Shown in pieces: positions 1-49,856 of a DNA stretch of 64,000 nt. Below the pieces are notes generated by a model. The model saw only the letters and a program-made list of their open reading frames with translations, searched no databases and was not told where the DNA came from. The position numbers and the translations under genes were made by a program. Source of the DNA: Candidatus Falkowbacteria bacterium (GTDB lineage: Bacteria > Patescibacteriota > Patescibacteriia > Patescibacteriales > UBA12465); assembly GCA_016432645.1 (NCBI GenBank), contig CP066698.1, positions 581,062 through 645,061 of the forward strand, given 5' to 3'. Every line of letters begins with the position of its first letter. Within the stretch, counting starts at the first letter, position 1.

Positions 1-657
1 TTTTATAAGCAAGGCGCTAATTAATTTAAAAGCCACCCCGACACCTGCTAAAAAGGGGCAGGGATAGGCATTGCGGCTATCAGCCGGATTAATCAACAAA
101 CAATCCGGCAAATCGCCGGGCTCAGGCAAAACATGATGGTCGGTAATTATAATGTCCAGGCCTTTGCTCTTAGCATAAGCGACTTCCTCTTTATTACGGA
201 CGCCATTATCAACCGTTATCACTAATTTAAAGCCGTTAGCCAAAATTTGATTAATGGCCATTTTATTTAGACCATAGCCTTCACTGACTCGATCCGGCAA
301 ATAAACTTCAACCTTGGCATGGAGAATTTTTAAAGTTTCCAGCAAAACCACCGAGGAAGTCACGCCGTCCGCATCATAATCGCCATAAACTACAATCCCA
401 TTACCCTGTTTAATGTGGCTGATTATCAAATCAACCGCCGCGGCCATATCTTTAAAAATGAAGGGGTCATAAAAACTTAAATCATTGCCAAAATTAACAG
501 TATTTTGGCTATTTAATTCCCCGCTTAAAAAATCTTTAATGGCCGCCTCTTCTTTTAAGCCGCGATTAAAAAGCAGCTGTAAAAAAATACGGCTGATGTC
601 AGGATATTTAACAGCTAGTTCCGAATTAAGGTCTGGCAAGACGCTCCATTCTTTCAT
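1..657 (-). CDS. recJ: RecJ single-stranded-DNA exonuclease, N-terminal 219 codons (rest lies beyond the left window edge)
   Basis: Absent from the ORF track because it is truncated. Minus-strand translation from ATG (657-655) stays open to base 1: MKEWSVLPDLNSELAVKYPDISRIFLQLLFNRGL...GIVVYGDYDADGVTSSVVL...LVITVDNGV...DIIITDHHV. These are the DHH-family motifs in RecJ order. Confidence 0.8.
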   Translation of the reverse strand, partial: MKEWSVLPDLNSELAVKYPDISRIFLQLLFNRGLKEEAAIKDFLSGELNSQNTVNFGNDLSFYDPFIFKDMAAAVDLIISHIKQGNGIVVYGDYDADGVTSSVVLLETLKILHAKVEVYLPDRVSEGYGLNKMAINQILANGFKLVITVDNGVRNKEEVAYAKSKGLDIIITDHHVLPEPGDLPDCLLINPADSRNAYPCPFLAGVGVAFKLISALLIK

Positions 658-37483: not shown

Positions 37484-38854
37484 TTATTTATAATTATCCG
37501 GCCAATCATTCTGAAAAATAATGGTATCGCCTGCACGCAAAACATTAGCTAAATCTTGGTGTGCGGCAATAGCGTCGGGATATTCTTTAAAATTTAAAAA
37601 ACCAATTTTCCGAAATTCATCAGCAATGTAAGCGGTGGCGCTATTTTTTATTAATAGCACTAAATCAATTTTTTTTGAAGCATAGAGTCGGGCAATTTCC
37701 CGATGGCGTTCTTCTTTTTTATCACCCAGCTCTACCAAGCCCGGAGTAATGACCAGGCGTCTTCCGGTGGCACGACCCAAAACTTCCAAGCCGCTCTTAA
37801 AACCATCAAAATTACCATTATAACTATCATCAATTACTAATAGTTGAGAGGCTTTATTCCAAATCGGTTCCAAACGATTCTTAATAATTGGCATGGCGGC
37901 GATAGGCGCAATCGCTTTATTTAAATCCATTCCCAATTCTTGAGCCAAAGACAAAGACATCGCCAGTAAAATAATATTGTGCTTAGCTAATAATTTAGTG
38001 GAAAAAGTGATACCCGCATAGCAAAAAGATAGTCCGGAAAAATTCGGCAAAATGTTGAGCTCCTCAACCGAAGAATAGTCAATGCCGACAATGGACGGCA
38101 ATTTGAAACGAGAATAATTTCCTTTAACATTATCATCAACAAAATTTAAAACAACTTTTTTAGCGGTGCGTTCGGCTAATTCGAATTTGGCCTTAATAGT
38201 ATTCTGCAGGCCGCCAAAACGTTCTAGATGAGATTCATTAATGCCGGTTAAAAAAGAATAATCCGGATTTACCAAATCACAAATCTTAGCAATATCGCCG
38301 ATTTGATAAGCGCCCATTTCCACAATAAAAAAATCAGCAGCAGCTAAAGCGGCTTGATTAGTAATAATAAAGTAAGCAATTCCTAAATCGGTATTAATAT
38401 TATTCGGCGTCTTAACAATTTTAAAACCACTTTCTAAAACAACTGCTAAAATTTCTTTCAAGCTAGTCTTGCCGTAACTGCCGGTAATACCGATGACTTC
38501 AACGTGTTGAGCAGCTAAAATCTTTTTTGCCCGGCTAATTACCCTATTTTTTAAAAAATAATCCAGAGGTAAAAACAGCCAAAGGACCAAAACTGCCAAC
38601 AGCGGCAAAATAATTATTAGTAAAACCAAAAATACTAAAGTCCAGAGCTTAAACACGGAAACCGCCAAAGCAATTAAGCAAATAACAACCGCCAACAACA
38701 AATAATAAATAGCCCGCGCTTTCTGAGTCCAATCAATTACTTGGCGTTTTTCTAAAGACCACCAATGCCAATTAGAATAAACGAATGTTAAAAAACGTCG
38801 TACATCATACGACTCTCTTTGTAAAATATAAACTAAGCCGCGGATGATATTCAT
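37484..38854 (-). CDS. murF: MurF-like Mur ligase (UDP-MurNAc-tripeptide : D-Ala-D-Ala ligase) with a membrane-spanning N-terminus
   Basis: 456 aa. P-loop GITGSYGKTS at ~residue 122 and VIDDSYNGN (MurF DDSYNAN motif). It lies adjacent to ddl. Residues ~45-100 are two strongly hydrophobic helices. Confidence 0.75.
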   Translation of the reverse strand: MNIIRGLVYILQRESYDVRRFLTFVYSNWHWWSLEKRQVIDWTQKARAIYYLLLAVVICLIALAVSVFKLWTLVFLVLLIIILPLLAVLVLWLFLPLDYFLKNRVISRAKKILAAQHVEVIGITGSYGKTSLKEILAVVLESGFKIVKTPNNINTDLGIAYFIITNQAALAAADFFIVEMGAYQIGDIAKICDLVNPDYSFLTGINESHLERFGGLQNTIKAKFELAERTAKKVVLNFVDDNVKGNYSRFKLPSIVGIDYSSVEELNILPNFSGLSFCYAGITFSTKLLAKHNIILLAMSLSLAQELGMDLNKAIAPIAAMPIIKNRLEPIWNKASQLLVIDDSYNGNFDGFKSGLEVLGRATGRRLVITPGLVELGDKKEERHREIARLYASKKIDLVLLIKNSATAYIADEFRKIGFLNFKEYPDAIAAHQDLANVLRAGDTIIFQNDWPDNYK

Positions 38855-39591
38855 AGATACTTGGCAATAATTTTCTTAAACTCTTCCGGCTTATCTAAAA
38901 AAGCATAATGTCCGGCGTCAGGGATTGTTTCTAAAACCGCTTGGTAGCTTAAGCTTTTTAGTTTTTCGGCCTGCCGATAAGGCGTCGCCACATCATCTCG
39001 ACCCCAAATTAAAATAATTGGCAGTTGTAACTTGAAAAAGGCGATTTGCCGATCTTCACTAATCAATTTTTTATAGGTTCCAGCCATTTCCCCAGCTTCT
39101 AGATAATCGGCACTAAGTGCCTTGCCAGCCAAACGCCGCCGCCATTTCTGGTTAATAAAGGGAAACAAAATGCGAAAAATTTTAGCGCCGATAAATAACT
39201 TTTGTGAGCGCCCTAATCGCTCCCGAATAACTGCTCCGCCCAGGAGAATCAATTTTTGGGCCTCTCGGCCGGAACTCAAATATTCAACGGCCACTGCCCC
39301 GCCAACACTATGACCAATAATAATCGGGTTCACAATCTTTAATTTGTTTAAAAAATCGGCCACTAATTTTGAGTAATCGGCCAAACCCCAATCTTCTGGC
39401 GGTGCTTCGCTGCCGCCCCAACCAGGAAGGTTAATCGCTAACAAATTAGAAATCTTCCCCATAACCGAGCAAAACAAATCAACCGGCGATTTCCAGCCAG
39501 GTAAAAAAACAACCGCTTGATTGGGATTAAAATCGGAACTAATCAAATAGCTGATTTTTAGGCCATTAACAATGATTTCTTTTTTTATCAT
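38851..39591 (-). CDS. Alpha/beta hydrolase
   Basis: 246 aa. Nucleophile elbow GHSVGG, C-terminal IPDAGHYAF (catalytic His region). ATGA overlap with the murF start. Confidence 0.75.
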   Translation of the reverse strand: MIKKEIIVNGLKISYLISSDFNPNQAVVFLPGWKSPVDLFCSVMGKISNLLAINLPGWGGSEAPPEDWGLADYSKLVADFLNKLKIVNPIIIGHSVGGAVAVEYLSSGREAQKLILLGGAVIRERLGRSQKLFIGAKIFRILFPFINQKWRRRLAGKALSADYLEAGEMAGTYKKLISEDRQIAFFKLQLPIILIWGRDDVATPYRQAEKLKSLSYQAVLETIPDAGHYAFLDKPEEFKKIIAKYL

Positions 39592-39645: not shown

Positions 39646-39674
39646 TTGACGGCAAAAAGCGATTCCGCTAAAAT
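39646..39674 (+). promoter_or_regulatory. Promoter P1 of island unit U1
   Basis: TTGACG (39646-39651), 17 nt, TAAAAT (39669-39674). Confidence 0.5.
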
Positions 39675-39715
39675 AAGACCATAGTCCTTTTTATTAACAT
39701 CTAAAAATCAGCATC

Positions 39716-39847
39716 ATGAAAAAGAAAAATTTTGCATCATCGACAGCATTGACGACATCTGAAGTATTCGGCGACAACAAAACTGGTAAAAGCGAAATGG
39801 CAGGTTCTTCCGGACAGCAAAGAAGCGAAATGCAACAAAGGAAGTAA
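39716..39847 (+). CDS. Possible 43-aa hydrophilic peptide in unit U1 (this may instead be a non-coding RNA)
   Basis: ATG 39716 to TAA 39845-39847: MKKKNFASSTALTTSEVFGDNKTGKSEMAGSSGQQRSEMQQRK. No Shine-Dalgarno sequence; bounded by promoter P1 and terminator T1. Confidence 0.25.
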   Translation: MKKKNFASSTALTTSEVFGDNKTGKSEMAGSSGQQRSEMQQRK

Positions 39848-39872
39848 AAGATGCCGGGTTTTAAAAATGAAA

Positions 39873-39905
39873 AAGGTTGCCGCTGGTAGCCTTTTTTCTT
39901 TTTCT
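39873..39905 (+). terminator. Intrinsic terminator T1
   Basis: Stem GGTTGC (39875-39880) / GTAGCC (39886-39891) with two G-U pairs, flanked by an A-run and the tail TTTTTTCTTTTTCT. Confidence 0.5.
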
Positions 39906-39910
39906 CCTTA

Positions 39911-39939
39911 TTGACGGCTAAAAATAAAGTAACTACAAT
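39911..39939 (+). promoter_or_regulatory. Promoter P2 of island unit U2
   Basis: TTGACG (39911-39916), 17 nt, TACAAT (39934-39939). The ATTGACGGC context is the same as in P1. Confidence 0.55.
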
Positions 39940-39945
39940 ATAAAT

Positions 39946-40240
39946 ACATTTAAATTAAGCAGCGAAATGAATCTTCCTGGACCAATTTGGTCCTCTCAGA
40001 AAGAAGCGCATTGTTCTTTCTTAATTTGATAAGCCAAATTTTCCTAGCTTATCAAAACTACTTAACAGGCGAGGTGTTCAATTTTAAAAAATCATCAGTG
40101 ATGAGAAAATCATTCACAAGATTGTTTTAAGGCTGCTGAATTAATTTCGTTACGAGGATGATGACTACATAACCAAAAAATACTAAGCGTTATGTACGAA
40201 TCGGGAGGGGTTTCTTTTTAGGAACCCCTTTTTTCTTTTT
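39946..40240 (+). ncRNA. Candidate structured small RNA of about 295 nt (unit U2), class unknown
   Basis: Bounded by P2 and a strong terminator (GGGGTTTC 40207-40214 / GGAACCCC 40221-40228 plus T-run). No ORF longer than 20 codons. Five further hairpins: 39979-39993, 39998-40021 (8 bp), 40028-40053 (7 bp), 40092-40104, 40166-40196 (8 bp). Confidence 0.45.
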
Positions 40241-40276
40241 CTAAAGAGAGCAACGAGACCCTGTTGACAAAGACTA

Positions 40277-40304
40277 TTGACCTTTTTTATTCTTTTGCTA
40301 ATAT
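40277..40304 (+). promoter_or_regulatory. Promoter P3 of island unit U3
   Basis: TTGACC (40277-40282), 16 nt, TAATAT (40299-40304). Confidence 0.5.
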
Positions 40305-40329
40305 AACAGCATCACCAAAATTTCAGAAC

Positions 40330-40629
40330 ATGATAAAATTTGTTTTTCTTGTTTTGGTTCTGAGTTTTGGGCCGCACGTGTTGATTACCAACAATAATGG
40401 CAATCTAGAAATCCGCCAACGCCCCTGGGTGTTGATAGAACAAGGAGTTCAAAAAATTGCCTACCAACAATCTTACGGTCTTATTCCGAGGAGTGTTGAC
40501 ATATTGACTGTTAATCAGCAAGAAGAAAACGAGGCCCCAATTTTTGCCGGGGCAACCGACCCTGTCGATACTATCGACAACATCGCCTGGCAACGGCAAA
40601 AAGAAAAACTCGCAGGGCTTACCATTTAG
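40330..40629 (+). CDS. Small putative secreted protein, 99 aa
   Basis: The ATG at 40330 is in frame with track ORF 40264..40629. The TTG at 40264 is itself a TTGACA box upstream of P3, so I trimmed the ORF. MIKFVFLVLVLSFGPHVLI looks like a signal peptide. No homology known to me. Confidence 0.45.
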   Translation: MIKFVFLVLVLSFGPHVLITNNNGNLEIRQRPWVLIEQGVQKIAYQQSYGLIPRSVDILTVNQQEENEAPIFAGATDPVDTIDNIAWQRQKEKLAGLTI

Positions 40630-40938: not shown

Positions 40939-43686
40939 ATGTCTAAACTAAAACCCAAGTTAATAATCATTGACGGCAACGCCATCATCCATCGCAGCTT
41001 CCATGCCCTGCCTCCAACTCTCCGAACCAAAGACGGAATTCTGGTTAACGCTGTGTATGGCTTTACCTCTTTTTTACTCAAAGCTTTAAACGAATTCCAT
41101 CCAGAATATGTAATTTTAACCTTGGATAAAGCGGGCAAAACTTTTAGGCACGAAGTTTATACGGAATACAAGGCGACGCGCGTTAAGGCGCCGGATGAAC
41201 TCTATGAACAAATTCCACTAGTTAAAAAAATAGCCGAAGCTTTTGATATTCCGATTTTTGAACTCTCCGGTTTTGAAGCGGATGACTTAATCGGGACTTT
41301 AAGCAAACAAGCAGGAGATGAAAAAAATCTAGAAACAATTATTATGACCGGCGATATGGACACCTTGCAGTTAATAGACGAAAAAACCAAAGTCTATACC
41401 ATGAGCCGCGGTTTATCGGACAGTGTTTTATACGACGTTGATAAAGTAAATGAGCGCTACGGCTTAAAACCGACACAAATTATAGATTACAAAGCTTTAC
41501 GCGGCGATCCCAGTGACAACATTCCGGGAGTACGTGGTATCGGCGAAAAAACCGCCGTGGAACTGCTACAAAATTTTAATGACTTAGCGGGAGTTTATAA
41601 GGCCGCCGAAAAAAATGATAAAAAAATCAAGGCGCGAACTTTAGAATTATTAGCCGCTTCCAAAGACAACGCTTTCTTAAGCCAAGAACTGGCAACGATA
41701 GACCGCGAAGCGCCAATTAAATTGCTGCTGGACAAAGCGCGCTTCGCCAATTTTAATTTAGAAAAAGTCTTAAAATTATTTAGCGACTTTGAGTTTCGTT
41801 CACTCTTAGGACGCGTCAAAGAAGTGCGCGACCGTTTAGAAAAAGCGCATCAAAGCGGCGAAGGCGGTGCCGAAATCGTGGAACAAAAAATTTCGGAGCG
41901 CCAAAAAAATGCGACCTACACTTTTTTAAAAACCGAAAAAGAATTTTCCGCTCTCATAGATAAACTGAGCAAAACTAAAGAATTTGCTCTAAAAATAGAA
42001 GCCACCGAAACCGACCCCTTAACAGCAGAAATTTTGGGCATCTCTTTTTGCTTAAAAGCCGGCGAAGCTTATTTTATTACCGGCGATAAAAAACAATTGG
42101 GCGCCTTGCAAGCTATTTTAGAAAATACCAACATCAAAAAAATCGGCCATAATCTAAAATTTGAATGGCGACTCCTTAATAAATTAGGTATTAATCTTCA
42201 AGGCGTTTATTTTGACGTCATGATTGCTTCCTATTTGTTAAATCCAGGTGAGAGGCGTCATGATTTAGACGCCCTGGCCTTTTCCGAACTCGGCATTGAA
42301 AAAATTAGTGCTAAGAACATTCAAGCTGCGGAACCGACGCAGATGAGCCTGGATTTCAGCGGTCCTGATCCAGAAAAATTAAGTTTATTTGCCTGCGAAA
42401 ACGTAGACTTAATTATTAAACTCAAAAAAATCTTAGCCAGCAAACTTAAACAAGAAGAGTTGGATGAAGTTTTCTCTAAAATTGAAATGCCGCTGACGGT
42501 AATTTTAGGCGAGATGGAAAACAATGGCATTAAAATCGATACTAAGCCGCTAAATAAACTCACTAAGGAAGTGGCAACTAAATTAAAAGGCCTGGAAACC
42601 GAAATTCATAAACTGGCCGGTTCAGAATTTAATATTAATTCTACCAAACAACTAAAAGAAGTTTTATTTGAAAAATTGGAAATACCGACCGAAGGCCTTA
42701 AAAAAACGAAGACTGGTTTCTCGACTGCTGAAGACGAATTAATAAAACTGAAAGATTTGCACCCGATAATCGCCTTGCTGCAAGATTATCGGGAACTAAA
42801 TAAATTAGAAACAACCTATTTAAACGCTTTGCCAAAAATGATAAATCCGGAAACTGGCAAAATCCACACGAACTTTAACCAAACGGTAGCGGCGACCGGA
42901 CGCTTATCATCCAATGACCCTAACCTACAAAACATCCCGACTCGAACTGAAGAAGGGCGGCGCATCCGTGAAGCTTTTGTCGCAACAACAGGCTATAAAT
43001 TAATAAGCTTTGATTATTCCCAAATTGAATTGCGTCTAGCGGCCCATATGTCCAAAGATGCTAAAATGATTGCCGCTTTTAAAGACGGCGCCGATATTCA
43101 CGCGGCGACCGCCGCTGGCATTAATGGCGTCAAAATTGAAGAGGTGACCAAAAAAATGCGTCAAGAAGCCAAGGCGGTTAATTTTGGAATCTTATATGGC
43201 CAGGGTCCGCACGGCTTAAGCCAAGGCGCCGGCATTCCCTACTACGAGGCTAACCAATTTATCAAAAAATATTTTGAAACTTATCCGGGAATCAAAAAAA
43301 TGATTGACGGTTTTATCAAACAGGCGCGCACTCAAAGCTATGCCATCACCATGTTCGGGCGCAAACGCCCTTTGCCTGATATGGAGTCTAATATTCCGAT
43401 GATTAGGAAGTCGGCCGAAAGAATGGCCATTAATACGCCGGTTCAAGGCTCAGCCGCTGATTTGATAAAGATGGCGATGATTAACATTGCCGAAACTATC
43501 GACGACGGCACCGACAACGCCAGAATGCTTTTGCAAGTCCATGACGAATTGATTTTTGAAATTAAAGAAGATAAGATAAATGGCTATACTGAAAAGATAA
43601 AGAGGTTAATGGAAAATGTTGCCAAGTTAAAGGTGTCGATTATCGCCGATGAACATCGGGGCGATAATTGGGGCGAACTGAAATAA
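40939..43686 (+). CDS. polA: DNA polymerase I
   Basis: 915 aa. The 5'-3' exonuclease N-terminus (LIIIDGNAIIHRSFHAL), a 3'-5' exo-like middle, and pol motifs DYSQIELR and LLQVHDELIFE. Confidence 0.95.
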   Translation: MSKLKPKLIIIDGNAIIHRSFHALPPTLRTKDGILVNAVYGFTSFLLKALNEFHPEYVILTLDKAGKTFRHEVYTEYKATRVKAPDELYEQIPLVKKIAEAFDIPIFELSGFEADDLIGTLSKQAGDEKNLETIIMTGDMDTLQLIDEKTKVYTMSRGLSDSVLYDVDKVNERYGLKPTQIIDYKALRGDPSDNIPGVRGIGEKTAVELLQNFNDLAGVYKAAEKNDKKIKARTLELLAASKDNAFLSQELATIDREAPIKLLLDKARFANFNLEKVLKLFSDFEFRSLLGRVKEVRDRLEKAHQSGEGGAEIVEQKISERQKNATYTFLKTEKEFSALIDKLSKTKEFALKIEATETDPLTAEILGISFCLKAGEAYFITGDKKQLGALQAILENTNIKKIGHNLKFEWRLLNKLGINLQGVYFDVMIASYLLNPGERRHDLDALAFSELGIEKISAKNIQAAEPTQMSLDFSGPDPEKLSLFACENVDLIIKLKKILASKLKQEELDEVFSKIEMPLTVILGEMENNGIKIDTKPLNKLTKEVATKLKGLETEIHKLAGSEFNINSTKQLKEVLFEKLEIPTEGLKKTKTGFSTAEDELIKLKDLHPIIALLQDYRELNKLETTYLNALPKMINPETGKIHTNFNQTVAATGRLSSNDPNLQNIPTRTEEGRRIREAFVATTGYKLISFDYSQIELRLAAHMSKDAKMIAAFKDGADIHAATAAGINGVKIEEVTKKMRQEAKAVNFGILYGQGPHGLSQGAGIPYYEANQFIKKYFETYPGIKKMIDGFIKQARTQSYAITMFGRKRPLPDMESNIPMIRKSAERMAINTPVQGSAADLIKMAMINIAETIDDGTDNARMLLQVHDELIFEIKEDKINGYTEKIKRLMENVAKLKVSIIADEHRGDNWGELK

Positions 43687-48764: not shown

Positions 48765-48779
48765 ACTTTAAAAATATAG

Positions 48780-49104
48780 GCCTCGGTAGCTCAGTGGTAG
48801 AGCAAAGGACTGGTTTTCGGTCCGCCTAATAGTAATATTGGGATGAAAATCGGGTGAATTCGGGGAAACCTTCCCTTTTATCTAAGTTGGGTAAAAGAAA
48901 GGCAATCCCGAGCCAAGCTTCAATCGGGTTTAAGATTGAAGAAGGCGTAGAGACTAGCAGGTGAGCCCAACAATAATCCTGCATTAGCGCCCGACTCCGT
49001 ACTTAATCTTTTAAGCGGAGATGATATAGTCCGATCCTTAAGGAAACTTAAGAAAAATTTCAAGGAAAATCCTTGTGTCGTCAGTCCGATTCTGACCCGG
49101 GGCA
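48780..49104 (+). tRNA. tRNA-Phe (anticodon GAA) interrupted by a group I intron; exons 48780-48811 and 49065-49104
   Basis: The joined exons give GCCTCGG-TA-GCTCAGTGGTAGAGC-A-AAGGA-CTGAAAA-TCCTT-GTGTC-GTCAG-TCCGATT-CTGAC-CCGGGGC-A. This is a complete cloverleaf with a 7-bp acceptor stem (one G-U pair). Confidence 0.9.
48812..49064 (+). ncRNA. Group I self-splicing intron (253 nt, no ORF) inserted between U33 and G34 of tRNA-Phe
   Basis: P1: exon GGACU (48807-48811) with GGUCC (48819-48823), giving a U-G pair at the splice site. P10: UUUUC (48814-48818) with 3' exon GAAAA (49065-49069). P2 48825-48842 has a GUAA loop. P3 48851-48856/48988-48993. P4 48860-48864/48907-48911. P5 48869-48872/48899-48902. 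P6a 48918-48925/48934-48941. P7 48950,48952-48955/49028-49032 with a bulged A. P8 48995-48999/49016-49020. P9 49037-49052 has a GAAA loop. The terminal G is at 49064. Confidence 0.85.
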
Positions 49105-49119
49105 CACAAAATAGATAAG

Positions 49120-49172: not shown

Positions 49173-49856
49173 ATGCGTTTAGACAAAGATCAAGCTTTAA
49201 AATTAAGACTCTCAGGAAAATCTTATAACCAGATAAGCAATCTTTTAAAAATTCCCAAAAGTACTTTAAGCGTTTGGTTAAAAGATGTTCCCCTATCGGA
49301 GAAGGCTAAATCTGTAATAAAATCAAGAACCAACGAACTTGCGGTATCAAAGTTAATTGAAAGAAATAAAAATCAAACCGTATTAGCAAGCCAACGACAC
49401 GAAGTAATTTATAAACAAGCGACAAAGGAGGCAAAAAATTTATTGGATAATCCCTTATTTATCACAGGAGTATCGCTTTATTGGGCCGAGGGCTATAAAA
49501 AGGGCTGGACAGACAGTAAGTGGAAAAGTATTGATTTCGCCAATGCTGACTCCGAGATGATTGCAATCATGATGTTATTTTTCAAAAAATTTCTCAACAT
49601 CAAGGAATACAAGATAAAAATTCAGATAATGCTGCACGATGAACAAAACTCCCAGAAAGCACTAGATTACTGGCGAAACATTACCAAAGTACCAAAAGAA
49701 AATTTTTTTAAACCTTGCTGCGTAATTAGTAAAGCGAGTAATGGTAAAATAAAAAATAAATTGGAATACGGGACAGTCCATATTAGAATAAACGACGTAC
49801 AAGCATTTTTCCGTTTAGCCGGTTGGATAGATTCATTAAAAGCAAAATTTATATAA
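49173..49856 (+). CDS. Free-standing homing-endonuclease-like protein: N-terminal helix-turn-helix plus a single LAGLIDADG-like motif
   Basis: 227 aa. HTH SYNQISNLLKIPKSTLSVWLK. The LAGLIDADG-like helix is LFITGVSLYWAEGYK, followed by IDFANADSEMIAIMMLFFKKFL ... KIQIMLH ... ALDYWRNITKVP ... YGTVHIRINDVQAFFRLAGWI, a pattern I associate with LAGLIDADG_3-type enzymes. It is visibly more AT-rich than its neighbours. Confidence 0.55.
   Translation: MRLDKDQALKLRLSGKSYNQISNLLKIPKSTLSVWLKDVPLSEKAKSVIKSRTNELAVSKLIERNKNQTVLASQRHEVIYKQATKEAKNLLDNPLFITGVSLYWAEGYKKGWTDSKWKSIDFANADSEMIAIMMLFFKKFLNIKEYKIKIQIMLHDEQNSQKALDYWRNITKVPKENFFKPCCVISKASNGKIKNKLEYGTVHIRINDVQAFFRLAGWIDSLKAKFI

Follow-up and report, generated by a model that had tools for sequence, protein, structure and literature searches.

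Unit U2 (39946-40240, plus strand, about 295 nt) lies in a 64-kb stretch of DNA, hereafter the window (GC content about 40%), from an uncultivated member of Candidatus Falkowbacteria (CPR). From comparison with its relatives, it may be the mRNA of a small open reading frame (ORF), cut to nine codons in this organism and preceded by a leader of about 130-150 nt whose structure is conserved; to this reading we give roughly even credence, and U2 is possibly a dual-function RNA. The initial annotation of this DNA had proposed a structured non-coding RNA of a new kind. The structure and the novelty have held up, but a conserved ORF with a coding-type pattern of change lies 3' of the hairpins, so that a purely non-coding structured RNA is unsupported. 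As neither the leader nor the peptide family matches anything curated, U2 is a new family, of a known kind (a structured leader with a small ORF, or a coding sRNA).

To our knowledge, almost no regulatory RNAs or small proteins have been experimentally characterised in Patescibacteria (CPR), whose genomes, at roughly 1 Mb, have little room for non-essential sequence; a literature search on CPR non-coding RNAs and small proteins brought up nothing relevant. U2 provides a well-delimited CPR example, comprising a predicted RNA of about 290 nt, a covarying leader and a micro-ORF with a pattern of purifying selection. It could serve to test Shine-Dalgarno-independent initiation 3' of a structured leader, and could help in the annotation of small ORFs that gene callers miss (see the case of L088, below). 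Since U2 is limited to one narrow clade and close relatives can do without it, it probably has little to say on general open questions.

Limits, neighbourhood and distribution of U2

The unit and its surroundings in the window comprise the following elements:

38851-39591, minus strand: alpha/beta-hydrolase gene, neighbour of U2
39646-39897, plus strand: unit U1, a cassette with promoter TTGACG-17-TAAAAT, a 43-aa hydrophilic ORF (39716-39847) and a terminator (39869-39897)
39911-39939, plus strand: sigma-70-type promoter of U2, with TTGACG (-35), a 17-nt spacer and TACAAT (-10), from a consensus scan
40203-40240, plus strand: intrinsic terminator of U2, GGGAGGGGUUUC-UUUU-UAGGAACCCCUUUU and then a T tract, from a scan
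40241-40629, plus strand: unit U3, with a gene (40330-40629) for a 99-aa protein that has a signal-peptide-like N-terminus
40939-43686: polA, its protein 91% identical to polA of Candidatus Falkowbacteria MAGs
48779-49107, plus strand: tRNA-Phe(GAA) gene split in the anticodon loop by a 253-nt group I intron (48812-49064)

Transcription is predicted to start near 39946, about 7 nt past TACAAT, and the terminator hairpin found by the scan has 13 pairs (40203-40232), with the arms GGGGTTTC/GGAACCCC at 40207-14 and 40221-28. Both ends agree with the initial annotation, which had drawn U2 from a predicted transcription start to a strong terminator, and the terminator arms and the five helices that it listed lie exactly where it had placed them. 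The promoter layout (TTGAC-N18-TAnAAT) is seen again in at least 10 homologous units, and a terminator hairpin with a T tract closes every complete one, its stems carrying compensatory changes. No part of U2 is better conserved than these two elements: promoter and terminator are each 95% identical to their counterparts in the related locus L001, compared with 60% for the third codon positions of polA. U2 would then be transcribed on its own, between signals for start and stop that are both conserved.

Related loci (denoted by L numbers) were gathered first by a polA-based scan of GTDB species representatives. U2 was located by BLASTN and nhmmer in L001, L002, L003 and L023; protein searches with the neighbouring genes and contig look-ups added L080/L081, L082, L084, L085, L087, L088/L089, L092 and L093, and one further copy (L090) is cut off by a contig end. 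The sample is small and closely related, comprising 13 complete copies and one partial copy, every one of them in close Falkowbacteria relatives. No second copy or paralogue was found by a covariance-model search of 36 related loci (368 kb), and an exact-pattern scan of JGI metagenomes for the P2/P3 core of the leader (described below) returned only two contigs, both already known. A looser P2/P3 pattern brought up 49 loci on viral contigs, which were set aside as chance matches because none of the 49 fitted the covariance model.

In every copy, U2 is flanked by the alpha/beta-hydrolase gene, in divergent orientation, and by U3, the gene of the small secreted protein. The initial annotation had pointed to the same order of hairpins upstream of polA in related genomes as something to look for; helices 1-3 do recur in relatives, without polA as a fixed neighbour. 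U2 lies about 3.5 kb upstream of polA in L003, and in L002 the interval between them holds other genes, including a 769-aa helicase-like gene: polA is an incidental neighbour, the constant companions of U2 being the hydrolase gene and U3. U2 is missing from three close relatives, L004, L005 and L083. U1 is upstream of U2 in some copies only, and the two units have been gained and lost independently of each other.

The flanking genes have features of their own. The U1 ORF is called as a gene of 40-48 aa in L002, L080, L082, L083 and L086-L088 and is absent from L023; its ends are conserved (MKKKN... and ...SSGQQ.S.MQQRK), and it has no Pfam or NCBIfam match. The U3 protein matches no family, its exact match being the hypothetical protein HY931_02905, and among 5.8 billion sequences there are only five protein clusters for it. 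The U3 promoter region (CTGTTGACAAAGAC..TTGACC-16-TAATAT) is very strongly conserved, also in relatives that lack U1 and U2. Between U3 and polA, some relatives have an inserted superfamily-1 helicase-like gene (769 aa, AAA_11/AAA_12) together with a 75-aa ORF (L002, 3557-5866, minus strand; L086, 1-838), so gene order 3' of U3 is variable.

The third codon positions of U3 are 87% identical to those of L001, as against 60% for polA, which suggests either recent exchange or unusual constraint. The modules of U2 are also mosaic: L085 combines a leader of the L002 type with a nine-codon ORF, and L088 a leader of the L001 type with a 40-codon ORF. From the high identity of U3 and this mosaicism, it appears that the region has recombined recently. 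Raw conservation therefore overstates selection, and our conclusions are based on covariation and on the codon pattern.

The structured leader and the segments behind it

From its 5' end to the terminator, U2 can be divided as follows (all on the plus strand):

39946-39967: variable stretch ahead of the conserved core (5' extension), missing or replaced in L003, L093, L023, L092 and L087
39968-39978: P0 5' strand, GAAUCUUCCUG, from minimum-free-energy folds, with 40068-40080 as predicted partner
39979-39993: P1 hairpin, GGACC/GGUCC (arms 39979-83 and 39989-93), from the alignment of 14 sequences
39998-40021: P2 hairpin, AGAAAGAA/UUCUUUCU (arms 39998-40005 and 40014-21), from the alignment
40025-40056: P3 hairpin, UUUGAUAAGC/GCUUAUCAAA, with a loop that varies in length, from the alignment
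40057-40067: A-rich single-stranded joiner after P3, from conserved alignment columns
40068-40080: P0 3' strand, GG.GAGG.GUUCA, predicted
40081-40100: A/U-rich linker before the start codon, with no Shine-Dalgarno sequence
40101-40130: mini-ORF, ATG AGA AAA TCA TTC ACA AGA TTG TTT TAA, giving MRKSFTRLF*
40131-40165: segment 3' of the mini-ORF, GGCUGCUGAAUUAAUUUCGUUACGAGGAUGAUGAC, homologous to the distal part of longer variants
40166-40196: hairpin 5, UACAUAAC/GUUAUGUA, from comparison with relatives

The 295 nt of U2 fold with a minimum free energy of -75.9 kcal/mol, against -56.9 +/- 4.8 for shuffled sequences (z = -3.99, a value matched by none of 200 shuffles). On the minus strand, folding is hardly less favourable (z = -3.66), so the strand is not decided by folding energy alone. 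It is the variation among copies that indicates the strand: about 19 G-U cells in P1 and P2 would become A-C mismatches on the minus strand, and the plus strand is therefore the functional one.

Covariation was assessed on 14 sequences, aligned under guidance of the model and fitted to its structure. In this alignment, 96.7% of the cells of P1-P3 pair, and six pairs have both partners changed. Column shuffling gave as many such pairs in none of 500 trials, and sliding the partner by 1-3 columns gave at most two. An independent MAFFT alignment of eight sequences gave the same picture of P1-P3, with less power.

In P1, 97% of cells pair, and three of the five pairs have changed on both sides (G-C to A-U, C-G to U-A). 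P3, of which the inner arms GATAAGC/GCTTATC lie at 40028-34 and 40047-53, pairs in 100% of cells, with compensatory changes in three of its nine pairs and the variants GAUAAGU/ACUUAUC, AAUAAGC/GCUUAUU, GCUAAGU/ACUUAGC and GAUAAAC/GUUUAUC. In P2 (92% of cells), variation is one-sided only, by way of G-U pairs that fit the plus strand alone. The 3' arm of P2 belongs to a near-invariant element, GUUCUUUCU (40013-40021), and L023, L087 and L092, which are without the 5' arm, still have GUYCUUUCU; its retention there implies a constraint beyond pairing. The joiner behind P3 has the consensus AAAA-N-UAYGYAA-N-A, its first three A's being the 3' end of P3 (a 3-nt overlap).

The outer parts of the leader are less regular. 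Some closing helix (P0) is predicted in every copy, in a register that differs between copies; when one register is imposed on the whole family, 75.6% of cells pair and there are no compensatory changes. A predicted pairing of the 5' extension (39946-39967) with 40132-40142 is confined to this window.

The five-helix structure of the initial annotation is thus kept across the family in its first three helices, which correspond to P1, P2 (arms given as AGAAAGAA/TTCTTTCT, 39998-40005 and 40014-21) and P3, and is not kept in helices 4 and 5. The check for compensatory changes that it had proposed came out in favour of helices 1 and 3; helix 2 varies by G-U pairs only, and helix 4 is not conserved. 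Helix 4 (TCATC/GATGA, 40092-96 and 40100-04), which overlaps the start codon, is specific to this window and absent even from the nearest relatives. Hairpin 5 (in DNA letters TACATAAC/GTTATGTA, 40166-73 and 40189-96) persists in the three nearest relatives, L001, L085 and L092, where its loop is shorter and one A-U pair has become G-C by compensatory change; the longer variants have another hairpin, GCUCC-CUUCACAAA-GGAGC, in its place.

The linker before the start codon is only 47% identical to that of L001, yet it is A/U-rich in every copy. In the predicted ensembles, the accessibility of the start region is the same as that of the rest of the RNA, neither clearly open nor clearly sequestered, which does not speak for a cis-regulatory role of the leader. 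Behind the mini-ORF, the four nine-codon copies have a predicted pairing between GAGGAUGAU and AUCAUUC of the ORF; changes in it are one-sided only, and pairing of this type is not maintained outside the nine-codon group. We considered a fold-back switch, in which the early ORF would pair with the P0 3' strand or with GAAUGA/GAGGAUGAU, and set it aside: such pairing can form in some variants, but its central pairs are broken in others.

The structure belongs to no described family that we could find. In the search of Rfam that the initial annotation had asked for, no family of Rfam 15 reached its gathering score inside 39946-40240; relaxed thresholds gave noise only for U2 (E >= 0.2), the best match being sroD with 21 bits (threshold 50; E = 0.24), and five homologous loci gave no match at E <= 0.1. 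ARAGORN found no tmRNA or tRNA inside U2, its only four tRNAs being elsewhere in the window. The annotation had likewise seen no sign of SRP, 6S, RNase P, tmRNA or T-box RNAs, and two of the outcomes that it had named as speaking against its proposal, a significant Rfam match and a lack of conservation or covariation, were not encountered. With regard to a riboswitch, the conserved multi-helix domain matches no known class, and the sole gene under its control is an ORF of 9-40 codons.

These searches also drew attention to the split tRNA-Phe gene. Its intron (48812-49064) matches Rfam RF00028 with 83 bits; ARAGORN missed the unspliced gene and recognised tRNA-Phe when the exons were joined. 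A 227-aa ORF (49173-49856) follows the split gene.

The mini-ORF and its peptide family

The initial annotation had found no plausible ORF in U2. Its longest ATG ORF, of 20 codons, is indeed present (39967-40029) and is not conserved in relatives; it is the nine-codon ORF at 40101-40130 that is conserved, with the substitution signature of a coding sequence. The ATG of this mini-ORF is present in all 13 complete copies, 75-88 nt past GUUCUUUCU. Across copies, codon 2 is AGA, CGC, AGG, CGG or AAA, codon 3 AAA or AAG, codon 7 AGA, CGC, CGT or AAA, and codon 8 TTG, CTG, TTT or ATT, so that in frame 0 the changes in all four variable codons are synonymous or conservative (R/K, L/I/F); in the other two frames, conservative variable triplets number none of six and three of seven. 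L092 has an additional synonymous change, of TCA to TCG. Read from the sequences, L084, L088, L093 and L023 differ in their first ten codons by in-frame blocks of 9 nt. Past codon 9, the reading frame is kept between L002 and L082/L080.

The peptides fall into groups of different length:

Window, L001, L085, L092: 9 aa, MRKSFTRLF
L002, L080, L082, L087: 21-30 aa, MRKSFTRFF[YC]QLQNQSASTLA...
L084, L088, L093: 35-40 aa, MKKSFLQN.TAD..RTL.L.VQ.IAG..KESQK.
L003: 20 aa, MKKSFTKIFFQANAMMLQKK
L023: 25 aa, MKKTTKSLKNSRNYRRIGAGRMANA

They align as MKKSF[TRFFYQ]LQNxxA[SD]..TL.., four of the groups making one family to which L023 belongs only loosely, and their C-terminal parts differ greatly between lineages. 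No Pfam or NCBIfam match was found for them. The 25-aa peptide of L023 seemed to resemble ribosomal protein L34 (MK.T...RN...RMA), an identification that we dropped because it had no Pfam or NCBIfam match even at E <= 10. In L088, the gene caller had annotated a 69-aa ORF (26-235, plus strand) opposite the small ORF of U2, and left the conserved 40-codon ORF uncalled.

The nine-codon form differs from the longer ones by a change of TAT/TGT to TAA at codon 10 and by a downstream deletion, the sequence after the stop still being alignable with the longer forms. The four nine-codon copies show five nucleotide differences within the ORF, all of them synonymous and reflecting few independent events; by a rough estimate, this would have a probability of about 0.001 under neutrality. 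The Ser-Phe-Thr codons (UCAUUCACA) have almost no third-position variation, which suggests an extra constraint at the RNA level. Taken as a whole, the pattern of substitution points to selection on the small ORF at the protein level, with a putative peptide as its product.

The lack of a Shine-Dalgarno sequence upstream of the mini-ORF is in keeping with the rest of the window, in which none of 46 long ORFs has one and upstream regions are A/T-rich. In several long ORFs, a TATAAT-like box lies 6-8 nt before the ATG (e.g. 10194, 39591 on the minus strand, and 55861), so several genes appear to be leaderless. In a genome that does not use Shine-Dalgarno sequences, the want of a ribosome-binding site does not count against the mini-ORF being translated.

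Possible roles of U2 and comparison with known systems

If U2 is a small-ORF mRNA, as we are about evenly inclined to think, transcription would begin near 39946, about 7 nt past TACAAT, and end at the terminator (40203-40240). The first 130 nt or so of the transcript would fold into P1-P3, probably closed by a weak P0, behind which would come the A-rich single strand and then the A/U-rich linker. This open A/U-rich stretch might act as the site of ribosome loading, from which the ORF would be translated, starting at 40101. In relatives, the product would be a hydrophilic peptide of 20-40 residues; in the window and its three near relatives, the nonsense change at codon 10 and the downstream deletion would leave MRKSFTRLF. 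Most likely, the leader would act in cis on the stability or the translation of the U2 mRNA.

The survival of so much around so short an ORF may be seen in other ways. A small-protein gene inactivated in this organism, and conserved only through recent divergence or recombination, would be a decaying remnant, in line with the nonsense change and internal deletion that set it apart from the 21-40-codon variants, with the dispensability of U2 (missing from L004, L005 and L083) and with the low synonymous divergence of U3 (87% third-position identity), which suggests recent exchange. A remnant seems unlikely, however, when five out of five differences among the nine-codon copies are synonymous, when no segment of the unit is better conserved than its promoter and terminator, and when hairpin 5 and the terminator stem have undergone compensatory changes within the nine-codon subgroup. 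It is conceivable, and deserves somewhat more serious thought although we are doubtful of it, that the RNA itself is the main product, a trans-acting riboregulator or dual-function sRNA with a secondary or vestigial ORF, in which the invariant single-stranded or semi-exposed elements GUUCUUUCU and UCAUUCACA make base pairs with mRNA targets or serve as protein-binding sites. Such a role would explain why promoter, leader, 3' hairpin and terminator have all survived in nine-codon variants despite the shortening of the ORF; the invariance of GUYCUUUCU where its P2 partner arm is missing (L023, L087, L092), that of UCAUUCACA at third codon positions, and the reappearance of the motif UUCACAA in the loop of the 3' hairpin of longer variants are further points in its favour. 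Yet the changes in the first nine codons track the genetic code and not any pairing partner, the 64-kb window offers no convincing or conserved complementary site near gene starts, and neither an RNA chaperone nor a target is known for the lineage. A more specific proposal, to which we attach little probability, is that the nonapeptide (M-R/K-K-S-F-T-R/K-L/F/I-F) and the three-hairpin leader make up an undescribed CPR regulatory RNA in which translation of nine codons is itself the function. In it, a sensor of the nascent peptide or of ribosome occupancy might, for example, remodel the RNA, which would then act on other genes; this, if true, would account for the survival of U2 after truncation of its ORF to nine codons.

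Two readings give U2 a role towards a partner close at hand. The position of the hairpins and terminator after the ORF, directly upstream of U3 and on the same strand, and the conservation of only some nine N-terminal residues with a stop at varying positions, as in arrest and leader peptides, would suit a leader-peptide attenuator, in which a ribosome on the nonapeptide decides whether the terminator at 40203-40240 forms or is read through into U3. This is very unlikely, because U3 has a strongly conserved promoter of its own between the terminator and its ATG, because L004, L005 and L083 carry U3 with that promoter and no U2, and because inspection of the sequence ahead of the terminator revealed no complement of either terminator arm, and so no apparent antiterminator; moreover, in the longer variants the conserved codons are more than 100 nt from the terminator. 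Even harder to credit is a system like the type I toxin-antitoxins, with U2 as a structured mRNA that is translationally inert, encodes a small toxic peptide and is kept in check by an antisense RNA. The long structured 5' leader before a very small ORF, the possible fold-back of the early coding region on downstream sequence and the patchy presence among strains are all reminiscent of such systems; but the fold-back pairing, as read from the sequences, is not maintained across variants, and the reading becomes extremely improbable because the peptides are basic or hydrophilic, none having a hydrophobic transmembrane stretch, and because a consensus scan saw no promoter-like site on the minus strand inside U2, which has no minus-strand ORF either.

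Some of these likenesses can be followed in well-known systems. The mRNAs of type I toxins such as hok, aapA1 and tisB have structured 5' UTRs; like them, U2 has a highly structured leader before a tiny ORF, of which the early coding region may pair at a distance, whereas the U2 peptides are not hydrophobic, no antisense promoter was seen, and at the end of the unit there is a terminator of the ordinary kind. Leader and arrest peptides (e.g. those of pheL/pheM, ErmCL and the CatA86 leader) resemble those of U2 in that only about the first nine residues are conserved and are rich in Phe (SFTRFF), with hairpins and a terminator to follow. Unlike the attenuators, U2 has no alternative antiterminator pairing, and U3 has its own promoter and occurs without U2; the long structured domain is upstream of the ORF in U2 and downstream of it in leader-peptide attenuators. 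Among dual-function sRNAs, represented by SR1/SR1P of Bacillus subtilis, RNAIII/hld of Staphylococcus aureus and SgrS/SgrT of enterobacteria, there is none to which U2 is related in sequence or through Rfam. U2 differs from them also in having no pairing target known or found in the 64-kb window, in the place of its nine-codon ORF 3' of a structured leader of about 130-150 nt, and in its CPR host without Shine-Dalgarno sequences. What it shares with SR1, RNAIII and SgrS is the general design: the RNA is short (about 200-500 nt), has a promoter and an intrinsic terminator to itself, folds into several stable hairpins and contains a tiny ORF, and conservation can be seen at the level of the RNA as well as that of the peptide.
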